Below are positions 14,590 to 34,573 of a DNA stretch of 37,640 bases, piece by piece (the stretch's first letter is position 1; every line of letters starts with the position of its first letter). The notes below the pieces were generated by a model. The model did no database searches and was not told the origin of the DNA. It saw only the letters and a list, made by a program, of their open reading frames with translations. This stretch comes from a virus. Where the stretch lies: the UHGV virus genome UHGV-1707198; one strand, written 5' to 3'. The translations under genes and the position numbers were made by a program.

Positions 14590-14820
14590 ATGAAAAGATT
14601 ATTTCTAACAATAGCTGTTGTTCTCTCTCTTACTGGCTGCCAGAAATTGCCGACACCTATATGTTATGGTGAGGCTATCATTGGTGGACAGGAGACAGTC
14701 ATACCCATATATGCTGTTAAAAAAGTGAACGACTATACCTTATACAAAGCGGGTAGCATCTATAACTGGCGATGGGTTGGAGTAGGTGCTTTCTCATCAG
14801 TCCGTTGCAATGCTGAATGA
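14590..14820 (+). CDS. small lipoprotein (signal peptide plus lipobox LTGC)
   Basis: N-terminus MKRLFLTIAVVLSLTGC has a basic n-region, hydrophobic core and a lipobox cysteine; 76 aa. Confidence 0.55.
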   Translation: MKRLFLTIAVVLSLTGCQKLPTPICYGEAIIGGQETVIPIYAVKKVNDYTLYKAGSIYNWRWVGVGAFSSVRCNAE

Positions 14821-14839
14821 TAGGTAAGCACACACCTAC
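14818..14839 (+). promoter_or_regulatory. recurrent motif, copy upstream of the holin-like gene
   Basis: TGATAGGTAAGCACACACCTAC; shares TGATAGGTAAGCACA with the copy at 26935. Confidence 0.4.
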
Positions 14840-18937: not shown

Positions 18938-18955
18938 ATTAAAGGATTGATACTA

Positions 18956-20650
18956 ATGGAATCGATAGAATCATTTCTAAAAAATTTTCTAGTTTCAGAT
19001 CATCGGGTTGCCGTCATAAAAGGAGATTGGGGCGTTGGTAAAACTCATTATTGGAATAGTTTTTATACTAAGCATTCTGAAGGATTAGATTTTAATGCAT
19101 ATTCGTATGTTTCTTTGTTTGGGGTTAACTCTATTGGTGATATTAAAAAAACTCTTTATCATTGTGCCACACCAATTAATGAAAAGAAATATAAAGAACT
19201 AATTTTATCTGAAACGGATCGAACTATGATTCGTTATAGAAATGGGTTTTGGGGATGGTTGAAATACAACTCCTTGTCAAAATTTTTAATACATTTCGGA
19301 AAGATCGATTTTTTTGGGTTCAAAACAGATAACCTGCTGTCATCTCTTGAGTATAAATTTGTTAATAATTATTTGGTTTGTATTGATGATGTTGAAAGAA
19401 AAGGTAATTCGCTAGAAGTTAAAGAAATTATGGGGGTAATTGATGAATTAGCAAGAAGAAAAGGTTGCAAAGTTGTTCTAATTTTAAATGAAGATAATTT
19501 ACATGATGAAACTGCAAAAAAACAGTTTTTAGAGTACAGAGAAAAAGTAATTGATGTCGAAATAAAATACGATCCTACGCCTGAGAAGAACTTACGTAAA
19601 GTTTTTTATGAAACTGATTCTGATTTTCTTTTGTTAAAAGTCTTAGCAAATGACTTAGGCATTAAAAATATCCGTATATTAAATAAAATAAAAACATCTC
19701 TGGTTAATCTTAGGAATGAGCTAAGCTTGGCAGAGGATAAGGTTAGAGAAAGCTTTATCAATAGATTGGTTCTGTTTTCAGTGGTTTACTATTCTGGTGT
19801 TCCAGGTGTTGATTATGCCTTGTTTAAAGAATCAATTAAAAACATACATGTATTTGATTACATGTTAGATGATAAAAAGGATGATTCTGTATATTCATTT
19901 ATTAATAGTCTTGATGTTATTTATGAACGAGCGGAAATTGCTTTCGATGATGACATAGATTTTTATCTCAAGAATGGTTATCTTTCTACTGAAAGCAATA
20001 TTCGAGGTATAATAGAAGAAAAAAATAAACAATATAAAGAACACAAGGCTTTATGTGATGTTAACAATGTTTGGGATATTTTTAGTGACTCATTCAAGGA
20101 CAATGAATCTGAGTTTATTTCTAAGATAAAATGTGTAATTAACGACAATCTTTCACACATACCTGTTGCTCACTTCATAGGCTTGATTGATATCTTAAAT
20201 AGATTGGAGATTGATTGTGATAGTTATATAGAGGCATATGCAGATGCCTTTGTTAGCCAAGATGATGCTTATACTGCTTTTCGGAATTTGTATGTAGAGA
20301 TATTTGGTAACGAAAAGTTAGGTCTGCTAATTCAAAAAAAATTGATGGATAAGAAGCCTGAAGAGACTAATTTAGAGAATGTTTTATACAAAATAATTGA
20401 AGGCAAATTTAATCATAGTGACATAGCATATCTTAACAGTTTCTCTGAAGATGATTATTTAAAGTGGATATTATCCCGCAATCAGGATGCTTTGGATTTA
20501 GTGAGAAAGGGGTTGCTCAGATTCAAAAGTATGCAAGAACTAACAGAAGAACAGCAAAAAATCACGAATAAAGCAATAGGTGCATTAACGAAACTGGCCT
20601 CTAGATCAAGTCTTAACAAACTACGTGTGAGCAGATTGCTTAATAATTAA
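18956..20650 (+). CDS. KAP-family-like P-loop NTPase
   Basis: About 565 aa from the ATG at 18956 (AAGGA ribosome-binding site 9 nt upstream). Walker A GDWGVGKT fits the G-x-W-G-x-GKT KAP signature; Walker B-like LVCIDDVER about 110 residues later. Strongly AT-rich and Lys/Asn/Ile-rich, unlike neighbouring genes. Confidence 0.55.
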   Translation: MESIESFLKNFLVSDHRVAVIKGDWGVGKTHYWNSFYTKHSEGLDFNAYSYVSLFGVNSIGDIKKTLYHCATPINEKKYKELILSETDRTMIRYRNGFWGWLKYNSLSKFLIHFGKIDFFGFKTDNLLSSLEYKFVNNYLVCIDDVERKGNSLEVKEIMGVIDELARRKGCKVVLILNEDNLHDETAKKQFLEYREKVIDVEIKYDPTPEKNLRKVFYETDSDFLLLKVLANDLGIKNIRILNKIKTSLVNLRNELSLAEDKVRESFINRLVLFSVVYYSGVPGVDYALFKESIKNIHVFDYMLDDKKDDSVYSFINSLDVIYERAEIAFDDDIDFYLKNGYLSTESNIRGIIEEKNKQYKEHKALCDVNNVWDIFSDSFKDNESEFISKIKCVINDNLSHIPVAHFIGLIDILNRLEIDCDSYIEAYADAFVSQDDAYTAFRNLYVEIFGNEKLGLLIQKKLMDKKPEETNLENVLYKIIEGKFNHSDIAYLNSFSEDDYLKWILSRNQDALDLVRKGLLRFKSMQELTEEQQKITNKAIGALTKLASRSSLNKLRVSRLLNN

Positions 20651-20797: not shown

Positions 20798-20819
20798 GAT
20801 AAGTAAGTAACTACCTACC
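20798..20819 (+). promoter_or_regulatory. recurrent motif, proximal copy upstream of gene 20831
   Basis: GATAAGTA-agtaac-TACCTACC. Confidence 0.4.
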
Positions 20820-23036: not shown

Positions 23037-24218
23037 ATGAGCCTTTATGTTATATCAACATTTAGGTTGGTCACAATATTGCCTGTTAAAAGTGGAATTA
23101 TCGTGAGCGAGCTGAAAGAGCTAATTACCGAATTAGATTTTGAACAATGGTTGGATACTGAAGGTATCGTTTATCGACGTGGAGGCGTGAGTACTCGCGG
23201 TCGTGAAGTGAATATCAAGGAGTGTCCGGTATGCGGCAGCTCCAACTGGAAGGTATATTTCAATCTGACCAGTGGCGTCGGCAAATGCTTCGCTGGTGAT
23301 CATCCCGAAGAGATTCAGTTCAATAAGCTGGTCTTCCTCAAGCACTACAGCGGTAAATCACGACGACAGTTCGAGGAATATGTGCAGAACGCTCTTCTTT
23401 CCCAGGGGTGGGCACCAAAGAAAGAAGAGCTAGTGCTTGCAAGCACAGTCGAGTTAGAGGGGCCAGTTGCACTCCCTCGTCATTACGAGCTTCCTATAGA
23501 TGGCCGTCTTCCAGACTATCTGGTTGAACGAAACATATCACCTGAAATGGCAAAGTATTTTGACCTACGATACTGCGTCGAAGGCAAGCACGCTTATGTA
23601 GATCCGTATACAGATCAGGTAAAAGGGCAGATATTCGATATGCGAATACTGATACCGGTTTACGATCTGGATGGGGTAATGAAGACATTTCAGGGACGAG
23701 ACATTACCGGTACAGCAGAACGCCGCTACCTCTTTCCTATGCAGCTTCCAGCTTCAGGTAAGTTTCTCTACAACGGCCATAATGCAGTCGGCAAACAGAC
23801 TGTAGTTGTCTGTGAGGGGGCGTTCGATGTTATGGGGGTTAAACGAGCTATTTTTGACGAAGAAACATTACGTGATTACGTGGAACCAATAGGAACGTTC
23901 GGGATGCATCTATCTGGTAACACCACTCAGGATGCAGAAGATCAGTTAGGCGCGTTCCTGACGCTCAAGGCGCGTGGGTTACGTAATGTGATCATGATGT
24001 GGGATAGTGAAAAGCAAGCTATACGCAACACTATGGCCGCAGCCAGGCGACTGAGCAGTATTGGTCTTAATGTGAAAATTGCATGTTTGGGCGAGGAAGG
24101 ACTCGACCCCGGCGATGCGACCCCGGGGCAGATTATCAAAGCCTACTATTGCGCAAAACCTTACTCACGACAGCTTGAACTCTTAAGCAAGGTGAAAGGC
24201 ATTGCAGCACTAGTTTGA
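23037..24218 (+). CDS. DnaG-like DNA primase
   Basis: Cys/His zinc-finger-like motif CPVCGSSNW...CFAGDH and a TOPRIM-like VVVCEGAFD segment. Start uncertain: the ORF track begins at GTG 22965 inside a hairpin, so ATG 23037 or GTG 23103 is more plausible. Confidence 0.55.
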   Translation: MSLYVISTFRLVTILPVKSGIIVSELKELITELDFEQWLDTEGIVYRRGGVSTRGREVNIKECPVCGSSNWKVYFNLTSGVGKCFAGDHPEEIQFNKLVFLKHYSGKSRRQFEEYVQNALLSQGWAPKKEELVLASTVELEGPVALPRHYELPIDGRLPDYLVERNISPEMAKYFDLRYCVEGKHAYVDPYTDQVKGQIFDMRILIPVYDLDGVMKTFQGRDITGTAERRYLFPMQLPASGKFLYNGHNAVGKQTVVVCEGAFDVMGVKRAIFDEETLRDYVEPIGTFGMHLSGNTTQDAEDQLGAFLTLKARGLRNVIMMWDSEKQAIRNTMAAARRLSSIGLNVKIACLGEEGLDPGDATPGQIIKAYYCAKPYSRQLELLSKVKGIAALV

Positions 24219-25355
24219 ACCAGTATTAGTCACATACACATTGACCGAAAATGATTTAACTTCTGTATTGAAGTTGTCAGTCATTACCGCGAGGTAGGCA
24301 TTCTTGGTATCTCTGAATTGCTTCAGGATGATTTGAACGTTATCGGTGCAAACAAACGAGGTAGCCAGATTGCCTCCTTTCTCTGAAAAATCCTTCAGGA
24401 AGGTGCAGTCAACTTTGCCATCATTAGCGGTGAAGGTAGCATCATCACCCTGCCAGGTAAATGTAGCGTTAACGCCCTTATCAATGGATTTAGCAATAAG
24501 TCGCTGGGTGGCGGATTTTGTTTTGGCTTTGGAAGCCGGCGCTCGATATTTGCCGCTTTCTTTCAGTTCTGCAATGTAATCGCAGCCTCTTTTTTCTCCT
24601 TTATCGCAAGCAGTCTGATAAAGGTCGGCTGCTTTTTTATAGTCCTTTTTTACACCTTCCCCATTCTCATACATAATGCCAAGATTGGTTATGGCGTCGG
24701 CGTTTCCAAGTTCCGCTGCCTTTTTATACCACTTAACTGCTTCTGCATCATTGCGTTTAACGCCTAACCCATCATCGTATAGTATTCCTAATCCTATCAT
24801 AGCTTCTGAACTGCCTTGGTCTGCCGCCTTTTTGTAATAAGTAAAAGCCTTTTTATAATTCTTTTTAACGCCTTTACCATATTGGTAATACGCCCCAAGA
24901 ACTGAAGTTGCTTTAACATACCCGGCATCAGAGGCTAGTTTGAAGTATTTAATGGCGAGTGCATGATCTACTTTACCAAGCATCCCCTTTTGATAAATAG
25001 CACCAAGATTGTTGTAGGCTCTACCTTCACGAGCATCCCCCGCAAGTTTGTAGTACTCAACAGCTTTATTTAGGTCTTTATCTACACCCTCGCCAAATGT
25101 GTACATAACTCCAAGTGCATAATATGCTACTTTATCTCCCTTTTCTGCAGCTAGATCAATCCACTTCTTGGCCTCAACTACATCCTTATCAAAACCATTG
25201 ACACCATCAAAATAATTTGTACCTAACTCACTTTGTGCTGCGGTATCCCCTGCGGTAGCGGCTTCTATCAGCGTTTGTTTATTGTCTGCGTTAACGAATC
25301 CAGAGTTAAAAAGCAAAGTTAATGCCAGCAACGATGAAGATTTTATGTATTTCAT
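24210..25355 (-). CDS. secreted Sel1-like repeat (TPR-like) protein
   Basis: Start taken at MKYIKSS (plus-strand CAT at 25353..25355), giving a Sec-type signal peptide. At least six repeats of the form A..WYKKAAEQG...A...LG.MY..G.GV.KD, characteristic of Sel1-like repeats. Confidence 0.6.
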   Translation of the reverse strand: MKYIKSSSLLALTLLFNSGFVNADNKQTLIEAATAGDTAAQSELGTNYFDGVNGFDKDVVEAKKWIDLAAEKGDKVAYYALGVMYTFGEGVDKDLNKAVEYYKLAGDAREGRAYNNLGAIYQKGMLGKVDHALAIKYFKLASDAGYVKATSVLGAYYQYGKGVKKNYKKAFTYYKKAADQGSSEAMIGLGILYDDGLGVKRNDAEAVKWYKKAAELGNADAITNLGIMYENGEGVKKDYKKAADLYQTACDKGEKRGCDYIAELKESGKYRAPASKAKTKSATQRLIAKSIDKGVNATFTWQGDDATFTANDGKVDCTFLKDFSEKGGNLATSFVCTDNVQIILKQFRDTKNAYLAVMTDNFNTEVKSFSVNVYVTNTGSN

Positions 25356-25587
25356 GTTTTTTTTCTGTTGATATAGGATGAACAGTTTAGACGCGGCAAG
25401 CGTCAAGTGTGCGAAAAAGGGTACTTAAATTTAGTTAATATGTCAGCTTTGTTGATTTAGTTTATGGTCGGTAAAGTTACTGGGAAACTAATAACCATAA
25501 GAAATAGTACGCCATTTAATTATTGTGGCACTGCTCGTGTTTTGATTAACTAATACCTGCGATAAATATAAATAAAGGGAAGCCAAC

Positions 25588-29580: not shown

Positions 29581-29602
29581 GATAAGTATTTACTTACTTA
29601 TC
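29581..29602 (+). promoter_or_regulatory. recurrent motif, dyad copy at the head of the non-coding leader before the tRNAs
   Basis: GATAAGTA-tttact-TACTTATC; the 8-bp arms are exact reverse complements. Confidence 0.5.
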
Positions 29603-30349: not shown

Positions 30350-30424
30350 GATGGTGTAGCTCAGCGGTAGAGCAGTTGGCTGTTAACCAACTGGTCGGTG
30401 GTTCGAATCCACCCACCATCGCCA
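30350..30424 (+). tRNA. tRNA-Asn (anticodon GTT)
   Basis: Cloverleaf folded by hand: acceptor GATGGTG/CACCATC, D-arm GCTC/GAGC, anticodon stem GTTGG/CCAAC with loop CTGTTAA, T-arm GGTGG-TTCGAAT-CCACC, encoded CCA. Confidence 0.85.
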
Positions 30425-30429
30425 ATTTA

Positions 30430-30516
30430 GGGGAGTTAGTCCGTAGAGGTAGCGGTGTAGACTGTAAATCTACTGTCATGGCGACTCGGGTGGTTCGACT
30501 CCATCACTCCCCACCA
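30430..30516 (+). tRNA. tRNA-Tyr (anticodon GTA), long variable arm
   Basis: Acceptor GGGGAGT/ACTCCCC, anticodon stem GTAGA/TCTAC with loop CTGTAAA, long variable arm, encoded CCA. Confidence 0.8.
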
Positions 30517-30520
30517 AATT

Positions 30521-30596
30521 GCCGGTTTAGCTCAGTTGGTAGAGCAGTCGTTTTGTAAGCGAATGGCCAGCGGTTCAAGTCCGTTAACCGGCACCA
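30521..30596 (+). tRNA. tRNA-Thr (anticodon TGT), probable
   Basis: Acceptor GCCGGTT/AACCGGC, D-arm GCTC/GAGC, T-arm AGCGG-TTCAAGT-CCGTT, anticodon loop TTTGTAA; the anticodon stem has one G-A mismatch and one G-U pair, so identity is less certain. Confidence 0.65.
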
Positions 30597-30604
30597 ACAC
30601 AACA

Positions 30605-30680
30605 GGTAAGAGCATTGGGCGAATCGGCGATACTGACCCACAAGGCCGTAAATCGATAGAGTCAGACCAGTGCTCTTACC
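30605..30680 (+). ncRNA. 76-nt hairpin element in the tRNA spacer (not a canonical tRNA)
   Basis: 10-bp terminal stem GGTAAGAGCA/TGCTCTTACC enclosing 56 nt; a hand-fold as a tRNA fails (no D-arm or T-arm pairing). Related stems occur at 30681..30739 and 30811..30912. Confidence 0.3.
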
Positions 30681-30916
30681 GTTGTGAGGAAGTGCAGCTC
30701 TTTGAAGCAACCAGAAGATAAGCATCTGGCTTCACAACACAACGATAATATCATTACGGTTAATCGTCGTTCATGTGCACAATGACTGGTCGAAAGGTAG
30801 TGATCTTACCATTGTGATGAATGCACAGGCTGATGTGCCGCAACTACAGTAGTGCGCGCTTTGCGGGGCTTGCTACAACCCTGTGTCGGAGTTCAGCACC
30901 GACCATCACAATAGCT

Positions 30917-31003
30917 GGAGAGTAGGGAGCATGGTGCTCAAGCGGTCTTGAAAACCGTCCCATTGTGCAAACGATGATGGTTCGATTCCATTACTCTCCG
31001 CCA
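30917..31003 (+). tRNA. tRNA-Ser (anticodon TGA), long variable arm
   Basis: Acceptor GGAGAGT/ACTCTCC, anticodon stem-loop GCGGT-CTTGAAA-ACCGT closely resembling E. coli tRNA-Ser(UGA) as recalled, T-loop TTCGATT, encoded CCA. Confidence 0.75.
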
Positions 31004-31157: not shown

Positions 31158-31180
31158 AAAGGGGCTTCGGCCCCTTTTTT
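31158..31180. terminator. bidirectional rho-independent terminator
   Basis: AAAGGGGC-ttcg-GCCCCTTTTTT, with A-run and T-run on either side; sits between the tRNA cluster and the convergent minus-strand gene. Confidence 0.55.
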
Positions 31181-31195
31181 GTTGAACAGTGCAAT

Positions 31196-32458
31196 TTACT
31201 TTACATAGTCGCCCAGTTTTAATATTTCGCGCTTATATTCTTTAACCATGCTACTGGATTCAGTATAAATTCGATTTAAAAGATTATCGCTATCTTTATT
31301 CTCATTTATCTTAATGAGTGATAATTTAAATTCATAGTCATCAAATGCCACAATCAAATGGTGGCCTGGGATTATATCTTCGTCACTCTTGAAGTATATA
31401 TCTTCAAGTATGTAATCTAGTTGATTAGATTTTCTTTTCTCGATGTAATCTTCAGCCATAGCTATTACATCATTCCTGTCATTTAACCTGTTTTTTTCGG
31501 AAGGCACATCTTCGTAATGTTGCACGATTGAACAACCAATAAGGCGTGGGATGTAAACGTCAAAATGAGTAACTCTATCATTCGCGGTTTTAAGTAGTTC
31601 CTCAAAGTAGTTTCTTACATGTAAAGGCAACTTCTCAAAGTAATCATTAATTATAGGAGAACAAGGAGTTTTATAATTCATAAGAACCGACGGTACGAGC
31701 TTTGGGTCTCGAAACATCCAGTCCCTTTTAACGTCCGATGGAACATAATAACTTTTAATGATATTATCAAAATAATTTATCATTCGAGATTTGAATATTT
31801 TGTTGAATCTAAGGTTTATGAATGCATCCAGATAAGGCATATCTGAATAAGCATCATCAAAAAATATTTCATCATTGAAAAAATCATATTTATTTAATAA
31901 ACAACACAGTTTTCCCGAATTAATATGTTCACAATAATCGATCTTTAATCCAAAGATAGCAATGATCAACTTCATCTGAGGTGGGATTTTGAAAATTAAT
32001 TGTGACACATACGCTCTTTTTTCCTTTAGACATTCCCCATCAATATAAAATGAACTATCCACATACTCAAAAATATTAATAATATGCTTCACATACTGTA
32101 TTACCTCATGCTGTTTTACCAATGGGTAATATAGTCTATGTAACTCATCGCTGTTTAAATTAATTTTGCGTTTATCGATAATTTGTTTTGCAAGAAGACA
32201 TAGCTCATCATGTTGATTTAATAAGGAATCAAACCATTGTTTAAATGCACTCTTTCGCATTTCGAACAATGATTCTGTTGTTAATTGAAGGGCTGAAAAA
32301 GCTGCTTTTGCACTTTTTCTCGCTTCGTAGGCATTCCATGCTGTTGCTATAAAAGCAAATGCTGTAGCCAATGTTCCAACAATTTGACCATTTAAAACAA
32401 CCCAATCCCAAAAAATCACGGTGAGCAGTAGTATAATAATGAAAATTAAAAAAGGCAT
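31196..32458 (-). CDS. AT-rich membrane-anchored protein of unknown function
   Basis: 420 aa; N-terminal two hydrophobic helices (FLIFIIILLLTVIFWDWVV and VGTLATAFAFIATAW), then a large Asn/Lys/Tyr/Phe-rich domain. Opposite strand to nearly everything else; very low GC. Confidence 0.5.
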   Translation of the reverse strand: MPFLIFIIILLLTVIFWDWVVLNGQIVGTLATAFAFIATAWNAYEARKSAKAAFSALQLTTESLFEMRKSAFKQWFDSLLNQHDELCLLAKQIIDKRKINLNSDELHRLYYPLVKQHEVIQYVKHIINIFEYVDSSFYIDGECLKEKRAYVSQLIFKIPPQMKLIIAIFGLKIDYCEHINSGKLCCLLNKYDFFNDEIFFDDAYSDMPYLDAFINLRFNKIFKSRMINYFDNIIKSYYVPSDVKRDWMFRDPKLVPSVLMNYKTPCSPIINDYFEKLPLHVRNYFEELLKTANDRVTHFDVYIPRLIGCSIVQHYEDVPSEKNRLNDRNDVIAMAEDYIEKRKSNQLDYILEDIYFKSDEDIIPGHHLIVAFDDYEFKLSLIKINENKDSDNLLNRIYTESSSMVKEYKREILKLGDYVK

Positions 32459-32567
32459 GTATGTATTTCACTCTACTAACTATAAAATATTAGGGTAATG
32501 TTAACCAAACAATGCCTTAATTAATAGATTGATCGAGGCTTTAATAACTTTATAATGCAGACTGCAA

Positions 32568-32589
32568 AGATAAGTATGCACATACCTAT
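32568..32589 (+). promoter_or_regulatory. recurrent motif, copy upstream of the glutaredoxin-like gene
   Basis: GATAAGTA-tgcaca-TACCTATC, one mismatch from a perfect dyad. Confidence 0.45.
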
Positions 32590-32632
32590 CTTCTTTGTGA
32601 GTAAAGTTGCATATCAATTCTATGAGGTAACA

Positions 32633-32878
32633 ATGACGATCACTATCTACGGACGAGATAACTGCTCATACTGCAAACGTGCGGTCGAGCTAGCGAAGCA
32701 ACTAAAGGGACATGGCTACGGTGATTATGAGTACATCGACATCACCACTGCCGGTATCGACAAGGAAAAACTAAGTGAAATTGTTGGTAAACCGGTAGAG
32801 ACTATCCCCCAGGTGCTGATCGAAGGCCAGCCGATTGGCGGATACACAGAACTGGCTGCATACGTCAGCACCCTCTGA
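32633..32878 (+). CDS. glutaredoxin-like protein (NrdH/Grx-type)
   Basis: About 81 aa from the ATG at 32633 (GAGGT ribosome-binding site); ITIYGRDNCSYCKRA contains a CxxC active-site motif after a beta-strand, and the C-terminal TIPQVLIEGQPIGGY is typical of the glutaredoxin fold. Confidence 0.6.
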   Translation: MTITIYGRDNCSYCKRAVELAKQLKGHGYGDYEYIDITTAGIDKEKLSEIVGKPVETIPQVLIEGQPIGGYTELAAYVSTL

Positions 32879-33088: not shown

Positions 33089-34192
33089 ATGAAAAATAGC
33101 TTTGACAGAGCACGCGCTGCGGAGAACACCTCAAAAGAGGCGATAGAGTATCTCGAAAGAGCATCTCAAATGCAGGCCGTTATGATCTCCCAGGTCAGCA
33201 ATGACATGAGATTCTCGGACGCATTCATGTTATTCACTCGCTTATCTCTGCTGATAACCAGACGTCGGCCAGAGATCGCTGTTCATTGTATTTTGATACA
33301 TGTTTTGCCGCACATTGCCGATGTAAAAGTAAGTGACATTAATAGGTTCATGGTGAACCAACTGGTCAACCCACTAATACTGGATGGCAAAATTGTTATG
33401 GGCCGCCGCGTTTTCTCTCTGATGAAGCAGTTCCTTAGCTGGTGCGCCTTCCAGGGGATGATAGACGTGTCACCGTTAAACGATATGTCACTTAACAAAG
33501 TTGCCGGTGGCGCAAAGCCCACACCTCGCGAGCGGAAGCTGACCGACGCAGAGGTATGGGTGTTCTGGAATATATGGGACTACTTCAATGTGTGTGCTGG
33601 TACAAAATGGGCGGCCAGGCTATGTCTTGTATCCGCAAGACGACCTGACGAAGTACTGCGGGCTAAAAAAAGTGAGTTCAATCTTAAGCGTGGGGTTTGG
33701 AATCAAGGCAAGAGGAACAAATCTGCCCGTGAGCATTCTCTGCCTTTAAGCTCATTAATGCGCACTTGTATTGAAGAGTTGTTCGAATATGGTAAAGACA
33801 GCCAGTGGCTCGTGCCTTCGAATAAAAAAATCGGGAAAGACCTTCCTATGTCTAAAGTGGCAATAGCCCAGGCATTACGTCGTATTCTGGAACGACCAGA
33901 ACTGATGGAGCTTGAGCCATTTACACCCCGAGATTTGCGCCGTACTGCGCGTAGTTACTTCCCAGCATTAGGCATAAGCCAGGAGGTATCACGTAAAATC
34001 ATGAACCACAGTCTTGAGGGGATAGATCGGGTCTACGACCGGCACGATTATATGGACGAGATGCGAGACGCCTTAGAAAGTTTCTCGACGTACATCGCAT
34101 CAATCGTAGAGCAACCGGATTTAGACGAAATTGACCACAAATTTAAGGGAGATCGTCTATCAACAGAGCTTATTCGTGTAAATTTTTCATAG
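33089..34192 (+). CDS. tyrosine recombinase / integrase (P4-like catalytic domain)
   Basis: C-terminal motifs RDLRRTARSY ... IMNHS ... RVYDRHDYMDEMR match the R-H-R-Y catalytic signature and the Y-x-R-x-D-Y-x-[DE]-E-R tail of P4-type integrases. N-terminal region is atypical and the ribosome-binding site is weak. Confidence 0.65.
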   Translation: MKNSFDRARAAENTSKEAIEYLERASQMQAVMISQVSNDMRFSDAFMLFTRLSLLITRRRPEIAVHCILIHVLPHIADVKVSDINRFMVNQLVNPLILDGKIVMGRRVFSLMKQFLSWCAFQGMIDVSPLNDMSLNKVAGGAKPTPRERKLTDAEVWVFWNIWDYFNVCAGTKWAARLCLVSARRPDEVLRAKKSEFNLKRGVWNQGKRNKSAREHSLPLSSLMRTCIEELFEYGKDSQWLVPSNKKIGKDLPMSKVAIAQALRRILERPELMELEPFTPRDLRRTARSYFPALGISQEVSRKIMNHSLEGIDRVYDRHDYMDEMRDALESFSTYIASIVEQPDLDEIDHKFKGDRLSTELIRVNFS

Positions 34193-34573
34193 AGACTTTA
34201 TGGCCTCAACAACCTTTTGTGATGCGCCTTTCTCTTTACCGAATCGCTCGTTATATGCAGCAAGAACCTGTTTTTCGTCCTCGTTAAGAGGAGCAGTGCC
34301 TTCTTTGTATAAAAATGCTGCGAGTTCGGGTTGGCGTTCTTCCAGCACCATCATCATAAGACGACTTGGCTCAATGCCCAGTGCCAGCGCCAGCGGACGA
34401 ACCTTATCGATAGGCAAAGGAATTTTGCCGCTTTTAATTAAAGAAAGGTTGTTGGCGTTTTTATACCCAATTGTTTTGGCTATCTGGGCCTGGCTCATAG
34501 GTGAGGATTCAATCAACCCTGCGATAAAAGCAGCGTAGCGACTTTCTATAAATTCAATCTTGTTATCAGACAT
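34187..34573 (-). CDS. HTH-type transcriptional regulator (XRE-like)
   Basis: 128 aa; helix-turn-helix-like segment SQAQIAKTIGYKNANNLSLIKSG; AAAGG ribosome-binding site on the minus strand; convergent with the integrase gene and divergent from the downstream + strand genes. Confidence 0.55.
   Translation of the reverse strand: MSDNKIEFIESRYAAFIAGLIESSPMSQAQIAKTIGYKNANNLSLIKSGKIPLPIDKVRPLALALGIEPSRLMMMVLEERQPELAAFLYKEGTAPLNEDEKQVLAAYNERFGKEKGASQKVVEAIKSL

Follow-up and report, generated by a model that had tools for sequence, protein, structure and literature searches.

What does a gene do that lies alone on the minus strand, between a tRNA cluster and the glutaredoxin and integrase genes of a phage-plasmid? 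The question was raised by a 420-aa open reading frame (ORF; 31196-32458, minus strand) in the virus genome UHGV-1707198, which was analysed as one window, the whole stretch of 37,640 nucleotides, and is an SSU5-like phage-plasmid of Escherichia coli. The original prediction, made from the letters alone, had read the ORF as membrane-anchored cargo of an accessory hotspot, either a moron or a defence gene and perhaps an abortive-infection effector acting on the membrane. Our analysis favours, with moderate confidence, a single-gene anti-phage protein of the AbiC/AbiP superfamily that would be anchored in the inner membrane, act by abortive infection or exclusion and travel as exchangeable cargo of a hotspot. 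An anti-phage role is argued from homology, AbiC-like architecture, the single-gene cassette, the company found in the same slot, deviant GC content, accessory distribution and a C-terminal evolution of the kind seen in genetic conflict.

The gene and its product

The ORF was recovered exactly as first described, with an ATG start and a stop codon at 31196-31198, and its product is identical to WP_021512311.1, annotated as 'hypothetical protein'. The start codon is supported by the N-terminus M-P-x-L, which is kept across 27 homologues. The GC content of 0.320, with 0.292 at third codon positions, is below that of the integrase (0.468) and of the window overall (0.448) and agrees with the earlier description of the gene as AT-rich. 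The protein is rich in Asn, Tyr, Phe and Lys as had been said, and Leu, Ile and Asp are likewise abundant. It had also been counted as one of three minus-strand genes, consistent with the independently supported ORFs of at least 100 aa on that strand: 24210-25406 (Sel1 repeats), 31196-32458 and 34187-34573 (helix-turn-helix regulator).

The ratio of nonsynonymous to synonymous substitution rates (dN/dS) was calculated between the window allele and an allele of E. albertii that is 86.7% identical. Its value of 0.34 over the whole protein shows that the ORF is genuinely coding and under selection; the alternatives of a pseudogene or a chance ORF were rejected on this ratio together with the family-wide conservation. 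A role as holin or in lysis was rejected as well, the gene being accessory, far from any lysis module and endowed with a predicted cytoplasmic domain of 375 residues.

Homology to the putAbiC superfamily

Searched alone, the protein gave no Pfam match and nothing significant in a PDB sequence search, and tblastn against the phage collection returned no match. PHROG 18168, to which no function is assigned, was matched at E = 4.5e-215, and an exhaustive phmmer search recovered 41 clusters among 1.84 billion representatives. The relatives P0026 (from Pectobacterium polaris) and P0027 were reached by phmmer at E = 3e-17 and 1e-16.

Twenty-eight full-length family members were aligned (alignment A1) and scanned one by one. 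PF16872 ('putAbiC, putative phage abortive infection protein'; curated gathering threshold 22 bits) matched 13 of them, with eight relatives above the cut-off at 31.9-45.1 bits (P0026 at 37.5 and P0027 at 45.1), one exactly at 22.0 bits and three at 18-19.5. In these relatives the match maps onto the segment homologous to residues ~118-197, referred to below as the core. The PADLOC model of AbiC matched P0031, P0036 and P0044 (best 1.3e-6, to 9e-6) over the stalk and core, and that of AbiP matched three relatives (best 1.1e-4) over the same core segment. A profile search started from the Pfam-positive branch yielded 67 Enterobacterales proteins of ~430 aa, almost all with PF16872, many of which are named 'putative phage abortive infection protein' by NCBI.

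For profile-profile comparison, the 13 members of the 420-aa protein's own clade (A3; 11 without a PF16872 match when scanned, P0048 with none precomputed and one that had matched) were set against 23 independent PF16872-positive proteins (A4). Using hhalign, the two alignments were joined at a probability of 100% and E = 4.5e-44 over 340 columns, which span the transmembrane (TM) hairpin, the stalk, the core and part of the C-terminal domain. Because of this alignment and the phmmer link to P0026 and P0027, the 420-aa protein is, on the evidence of profile comparison, a divergent member of the putAbiC superfamily, though it lies below the Pfam threshold. The earlier statement that its large domain showed no motif that could be placed thus stands for direct Pfam and PDB searches and falls at the level of the family. 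The remote homology search that had been proposed as a check found the putAbiC / AbiC-AbiP abortive-infection superfamily, and no homology to housekeeping or structural proteins.

Two other leads were dropped. Septu PtuB (PDLC00340, an HNH nuclease) was matched at E = 9e-4 and 16.9 bits over residues 30-128, and was taken as compositional noise because only one of the 28 members showed it and it fell on the second TM helix and the stalk helix; there is no PtuA partner. The SadR / Taranis 'AbiC' lead concerns Abi_C (PF14355, the HEPN domain of AbiJ with its Rx4-6H motif), which is alike in name only and matched none of the 28 members.

Membrane anchor and domain architecture

Two N-terminal TM helices had been predicted, and hydropathy analysis located them at residues ~2-21 and ~26-44. 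The first (32396-32455, minus strand, as for all segments of the protein) is very hydrophobic, with a Kyte-Doolittle score of up to 2.83 in a 19-residue window, and is a helix in the structure model; the second (32327-32383) is rich in Gly, Ala and Thr, reaches 1.73 on the same scale and is also marked by its conservation. They are linked by a four-residue loop, LNGQ, and followed by a segment rich in Lys and Arg (six in residues 45-75). Since no further hydrophobic segment exists in the protein (maximum elsewhere 1.32), the predicted topology is a membrane hairpin with the bulk of ~375 residues in the cytoplasm.

The structure was predicted with AlphaFold2 using alignment A1, and the model is confident (mean predicted local distance difference test, pLDDT, 84.8; predicted TM-score 0.73). 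It consists of the TM hairpin, a helical core and a C-terminal domain of helices and a few short strands, is helical throughout residues 2-97 and has one continuous helix from residue 24 to 97. The juxtamembrane or stalk helix (residues 45-97; 32168-32326) is accordingly continuous with TM helix 2 (TM2) in the model, is conserved, and carries the motifs EARxSAKAA and FKQWFxxLLxQH. The putAbiC-like helical core (residues ~118-197; 31868-32107) is defined by the PF16872, hhalign and PADLOC AbiC/AbiP matches, those of Pfam and PADLOC being in relatives, and holds the family-invariant residues Y122, L188, F193 and F194. The C-terminal domain (residues 211-420; 31199-31828) is variable, and its pLDDT is mostly above 85.

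Conservation in A1 peaks at residues 31-60 (65% mean identity) and is lowest at residues 211-420 (~25%). Within the protein's own clade the invariant residues (T32, A35, F36, T39, W41, A43, A46, S49, A53, A56, T60, S63, L64, E66, K69, F72 and W75) cluster in TM2 and the juxtamembrane helix. Selection is distributed likewise: in the comparison with the E. albertii allele, dN/dS was 0.09 for residues 1-100, 0.37 for residues 101-210 and 0.39 for residues 211-420, while the neighbouring integrase gave 0.024. The 34 sites at which the allele of one related locus (L022) departs from that of the window all fall within residues 211-420; since the differences are confined to this region, the comparison suggests that the C-terminal module is exchanged by recombination. 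We propose that residues 211-420 form a specificity or sensor module.

Comparison with known abortive-infection proteins

The ~430-aa putAbiC proteins of Enterobacterales, such as P0073 (Enterobacter cloacae complex) and P0026, are alike in length and architecture, with TM hairpin, stalk, helical core and variable C-terminal domain, and a member of their clade is likewise solitary cargo of a mobile element. They differ in that identity is only ~20-30%, and the 420-aa clade falls below the Pfam threshold, lacks the canonical polar residues, has its own invariants in TM2 and the juxtamembrane helix and is annotated as 'hypothetical protein' only. In a joint alignment of the two clades, the canonical Enterobacterales clade showed ~17 invariant polar core positions (G-H, S, R, Y-H, S, R-S, N-D, N, Y, Y-Q, E-H), forming the motif …GH…SPYMRxLYH…SSLVRSLIxND…N…Y..YQ…FFEHA, which is not kept in the clade of the 420-aa protein. 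There the same columns hold K/Q, I, N/K, I, N/S, E/S, variable, N/F, P, Q/D, F, S, L, variable, N/E and D/N, and only a hydrophobic scaffold (F72, L79/L80, Y122, L188, F193/F194) is common to both.

AbiC of Lactococcus lactis, encoded on plasmid pTN20, is the founding protein and namesake of PF16872 putAbiC. It resembles the 420-aa protein in being the product of a single gene, with two TM helices at its N-terminus and a helical domain outside the membrane (PMC13064643). Its length is ~344 aa (the PADLOC profile has 306 positions), and because it is shorter it would lack most of the ~210-residue variable C-terminal domain; its host is Gram-positive, and the capsid-protein phenotype is known only for AbiC. 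No Lactococcus sequence was matched by tblastn with the relative P0036, with E values of up to 10 allowed. AbiP is likewise a membrane-anchored single-gene Abi protein with the AbiC core domain, but it has one TM helix, is much smaller (profile of 223 positions) and binds nucleic acids. The extramembrane domains of AbiC, with its two TM helices, and AbiP, with its one, superimpose, which defines an 'AbiC/P' group (PMC13064643). AbiC lowers the production of the major capsid protein, and AbiP prefers RNA to ssDNA as a ligand, needs its TM domain and upsets the switch from early to late transcription (PMC13064643). The N-terminal TM anchor and the single-gene organisation of this group are both found in the 420-aa protein.

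An action like that of AbiP has to be weighed at this point: upon a phage trigger the cytoplasmic domain would bind RNA or ssDNA and disturb the timing of transcription or replication, the TM hairpin serving as an anchor only. AbiP requires both its TM and its binding domain and is triggered by the phage major tail protein (PMC13064643), and the PADLOC AbiP model matches the core of three relatives. We nevertheless consider this unlikely for the 420-aa protein, in which acidic residues slightly outnumber basic ones in the cytoplasmic part (57 Asp and Glu to 52 Lys and Arg), the Arg, His, Asn and Asp residues of the canonical clade are absent, and conservation is strongest in TM2 and the juxtamembrane helix, beyond what a passive anchor would need.

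Lambda RexB offers a likeness in possible working and not in descent, no sequence or fold similarity having been detected. RexB is a prophage-encoded protein of the inner membrane with four TM helices, needs RexA and has been proposed to abort infection via the membrane. It differs from the 420-aa protein, in which the proposed sensor and effector would lie in one polypeptide.

The exchange slot, its contents and its distribution

The edges of the cassette were mapped by aligning the window to nine related loci with blastn. Homology ends at 31178-31183 on the left, right after a terminator hairpin, and returns on the right at 32621-32644, at the start of grxA (32633), whatever cargo intervenes. 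The exchangeable cassette thus covers ~1.44 kb (31182-32620), with the 420-aa ORF as its sole gene, and is replaced in relatives by other cargos or by nothing. As homology stops and resumes at these edges, the exchangeable unit is the ORF with the ~160 bp upstream of it (32459-32620, minus strand), a region that travels with the gene. The GC-rich hairpin with its T-run (31158-31177), the terminator of the tRNA cluster, lies 19 nt past the stop codon of the ORF and forms the left edge of the slot; it belongs to the conserved backbone and not to the cassette, since it is kept in loci without the gene.

Slot contents were compared across 34 E. coli-type loci with an integrase at least 96% identical, taken from IMG/VR contigs and phage Cyrano, which are not independent samples. 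Family members fill the slot in 14 of the 34, as the window allele (six loci), an allele of 54% identity (WP_049076801.1) accompanied by a 184-aa gene (five), a P0012-like allele (two) and a P0014-like allele (one). The remaining loci carry an unrelated 302-aa ORF (five), a 298-aa ORF (one), AbiGi (PADLOC 5.3e-47) with a 403-aa partner (two), a pair of 193- and 270-aa genes with an HNH-like match to the candidate PDC-M68A (8e-25; three), a 637-aa SASA-esterase protein (two), a block of plus-strand genes (two), or only a 116-aa plus-strand gene (five, termed 'empty'). At least five divergent alleles occur in related elements, among which a P0007-like allele occupies the same slot in an element with an integrase ~80% identical (L041).

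DNA of the allele occurs in 40 of 5,426 complete E. coli genomes and that of the integrase in 252, in every case on a plasmid. In PLSDB, 134 plasmids, mostly non-mobilizable, encode a family member, and their hosts are Escherichia, Klebsiella, Enterobacter, Salmonella, Pantoea and Citrobacter. WP_021512311.1 itself, 100% identical, is encoded on the 108-kb non-mobilizable plasmid NZ_CP117002.1, where the local order is that of the window (tRNAs, 420-aa ORF, grxA, integrase, regulator, CobT). The phage records nearest to the window are Escherichia phages Cyrano and CMS-2020a. The clade of the 420-aa protein was always found at this SSU5 slot, where all the family members listed are annotated 'hypothetical protein'; a member of the canonical clade is a solitary cargo inside an integrative and conjugative element (ICE). 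AbiC is not among the systems reported in a DefenseFinder survey of SSU5 phage-plasmids.

Presence and absence at the locus, which the original prediction had named as something to compare, therefore vary as an accessory gene would: phage Cyrano and others lack the gene, and others again carry AbiG, the HNH-like candidate or divergent alleles. Invariant presence with conserved GC was not what we found, the allele being in 40 of the 252 integrase-positive E. coli genomes and its GC content deviant. The reading as a moron or defence gene in a hotspot is supported by this variation, by the GC content and by the putAbiC superfamily homology.

The same data bear on whether the cargo serves something other than defence, for example as a lysogenic-conversion membrane protein (fitness, envelope or stress) or as a plasmid-stabilising addiction or toxin-like module. 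The missing canonical polar motif would suit such a role, and other slots of these elements carry fimbrial usher genes or a SASA esterase. It is set against superfamily homology to Abi proteins, known defence systems in the very same slot, a cassette with no antitoxin-like partner and a variable, module-exchanging C-terminal domain of the sort typical of host-parasite conflict genes, and we regard it as very unlikely.

Proposed mode of action

The preferred reading, an AbiC/AbiP-type membrane-anchored anti-phage protein, can be phrased as a sequence of steps. During maintenance of the element as a plasmid prophage, the region upstream of the gene would drive its transcription in antisense to the phage backbone, giving expression in lysogeny. 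The TM hairpin would tether the protein to the inner membrane and leave ~375 residues in the cytoplasm, where the C-terminal domain (211-420) may recognise a product of the infecting phage, as AbiP is triggered by the major tail protein. The signal would be relayed through the helical core (118-197) and the stalk helix to the TM2/juxtamembrane segment. This segment, assigned as effector from the pattern of conservation as the C-terminal domain is as sensor, would most likely oligomerise and compromise the membrane, or processes that depend on it, and so stop the infection; both the defence activity and the membrane as its target are put forward in this conditional sense.

Several points weigh against this reading. 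The 420-aa protein has no PF16872 match even at E < 1 and is itself matched by neither the AbiC nor the AbiP model of PADLOC; the comparison with AbiC and AbiP was run, indirectly, through PADLOC models on relatives. It may not share the biochemistry of canonical putAbiC proteins, because nearly all of their invariant polar residues are absent. Fold searches yielded no mechanistic clue, no strong minus-strand promoter was found for the gene, and a literature search found no experiment on this protein or on any Gram-negative putAbiC protein. AbiP works through nucleic-acid binding and not through known membrane damage (PMC13064643), and no resistance was conferred by a lactococcal AbiC-like protein, 38% identical to AbiC, when it was tested (PMC11381338).

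Within an anti-phage role, superinfection exclusion would mean that the inner-membrane protein stops the genomes of related phages or phage-plasmids from entering, or halts their establishment at an early stage, while the host survives. The gene has features typical of superinfection-exclusion (Sie-type) genes, being prophage-encoded, single, membrane-anchored, variable between near-identical elements and allelically diverse. As a complete account we think it improbable, given that the predicted topology puts almost everything in the cytoplasm and only a four-residue loop in the periplasm, an arrangement better suited to sensing phage products inside the cell, and that relatives are also carried on ICEs; moreover, the homologous Abi proteins act after DNA entry (PMC13064643).

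A broader and more speculative reading takes clade and slot together, and we consider it unlikely. The clade would have been re-tooled, shedding the canonical polar site (possibly one for ligands or nucleic acids) while TM2 and the juxtamembrane helix stayed near-invariant, to give a self-contained sensor and membrane effector whose specificity comes from an exchangeable C-terminal module. The slot would be a plug-in site, each minus-strand cargo bringing a unit of promoter and 20-bp palindrome that reconnects grxA and the integrase to a phage-plasmid regulator with sites scattered over the genome.

The putAbiC superfamily and the concept of membrane-anchored Abi proteins are already known. 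New here are a large unannotated Enterobacterial clade missed by the Pfam putAbiC and PADLOC AbiC/AbiP models, its loss of the canonical polar constellation, and its position at a sharply defined exchange slot in SSU5-like phage-plasmids, which are common in E. coli, Shigella, Klebsiella and Salmonella. Were the defence role true, a sizeable share of these elements would carry an unrecognised anti-phage gene, which would matter for phage therapy and for how mobile elements compete, and the poorly understood AbiC/P group would extend to Gram-negatives, with a tractable host to study it in. The alleles found in nature, with TM and stalk conserved and the C-terminal domain swapped, form a series that suits the dissection of specificity from effector function, and the slot from the tRNA terminator to grxA is a place to seek candidate defence genes, for example among its unannotated 302-aa and 298-aa cargos.

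Candidate regulatory signals at the cassette edges

Upstream of the 420-aa ORF, on the minus strand, a weak sigma-70-like candidate promoter was found (TGGTTA at 32507-32502, 17 nt spacer, TATAGT at 32484-32479), which agrees with the consensus at 8 of 12 positions and so is a relaxed match only. At the other end, the terminator had been described as bidirectional; it is confirmed on the plus strand, and on the minus strand the weaker tail, GAATTTTG, did not reach the threshold of the scan, which leaves the second direction as plausible only.

The right end of the cassette holds a strong promoter-like site on the plus strand (TTGATC, 16 nt spacer, TATAAT; 32529-32556), upstream of the grxA ATG at 32633, and 13 nt downstream of it a 20-bp palindrome, ATAAGTATGCACATACCTAT (32570-32589, plus strand). 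The unit at 32529-32589 probably restarts or regulates transcription of grxA and the integrase. The program's glutaredoxin ORF (32555-32878, 107 aa) is over-extended, the RefSeq annotation and the homology boundary both placing the GrxA start at 32633; from there the protein has 81 aa and matches Pfam Glutaredoxin at 3.7e-10.

The palindrome follows the pattern ATARGT-N8-ACYTAT and recurs at 14820-14839, 20799-20818, 29582-29601 and 32570-32589, each copy intergenic and upstream of plus-strand genes. Seven strand-matches were counted where 0.20 were expected, a number reached in none of 100 shuffles. Related loci have a copy between grxA and the cargo where this is a family allele, the 302- or 298-aa ORF, AbiG or, in two of three loci, the HNH pair; at that position in the 'empty' loci it is not present. 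We take the palindrome for a putative dispersed operator on which a phage-plasmid-encoded regulator would act.

Other cargos of the slot

The 302-aa cargo (L019:5462-6370, minus strand; also in L015, L021, L040 and L072) is soluble and of low GC content, with no Pfam or PADLOC match. It was considered as a hidden putAbiC relative and this was ruled out (hhalign probability 0.9%). It contains LLRHTIVHNSGR, an Rx4H motif reminiscent of HEPN RNases, and is a candidate defence gene. The 298-aa ORF lies at L034:5472-6368 (minus strand).

The AbiG-type two-gene system was found at L008:3016-5120 (minus strand) and in L013, in elements otherwise near-identical. The AbiGi protein, which stands with the 403-aa partner, has 288 aa and matches Pfam at 4.8e-25 in addition to the PADLOC model. 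These elements have an extra minus-strand ORF of 329 aa between grxA and the integrase. In L037 (4879-6792, plus strand) and L038 grxA is absent, and the 637-aa protein, composed of DUF1737, a SASA sialate O-acetylesterase domain and DUF6645, lies between tRNA-Ser and the integrase; it may be a receptor-modifying or tail-associated enzyme.

Elsewhere in the window

A second island of low GC content (~0.30) at 18947-20650 (plus strand) encodes a 567-aa P-loop NTPase of the KAP family (Pfam 1.4e-5), which matches the PADLOC candidate defence family PDC-S49 (1.3e-21) and is probably further defence cargo. The near-identical plasmid NZ_CP117002.1 differs in this region, where it has a DUF1778/GNAT toxin-antitoxin pair. 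The minus-strand gene at 24210-25406 encodes a 398-aa protein with five Sel1 repeats (Pfam Sel1 1.5e-53) and, close to the N-terminus, a segment that weakly matches a PtuA-like P-loop (PADLOC 1.5e-5). The tRNA cluster (30350-31003) also varies, reading Asn-Tyr-Thr and then Ser in the window and Asn-Thr-Ser, without Tyr, in Cyrano and NZ_CP117002.1; blastn homology breaks within it at 30426-30489 and 30620-30900.

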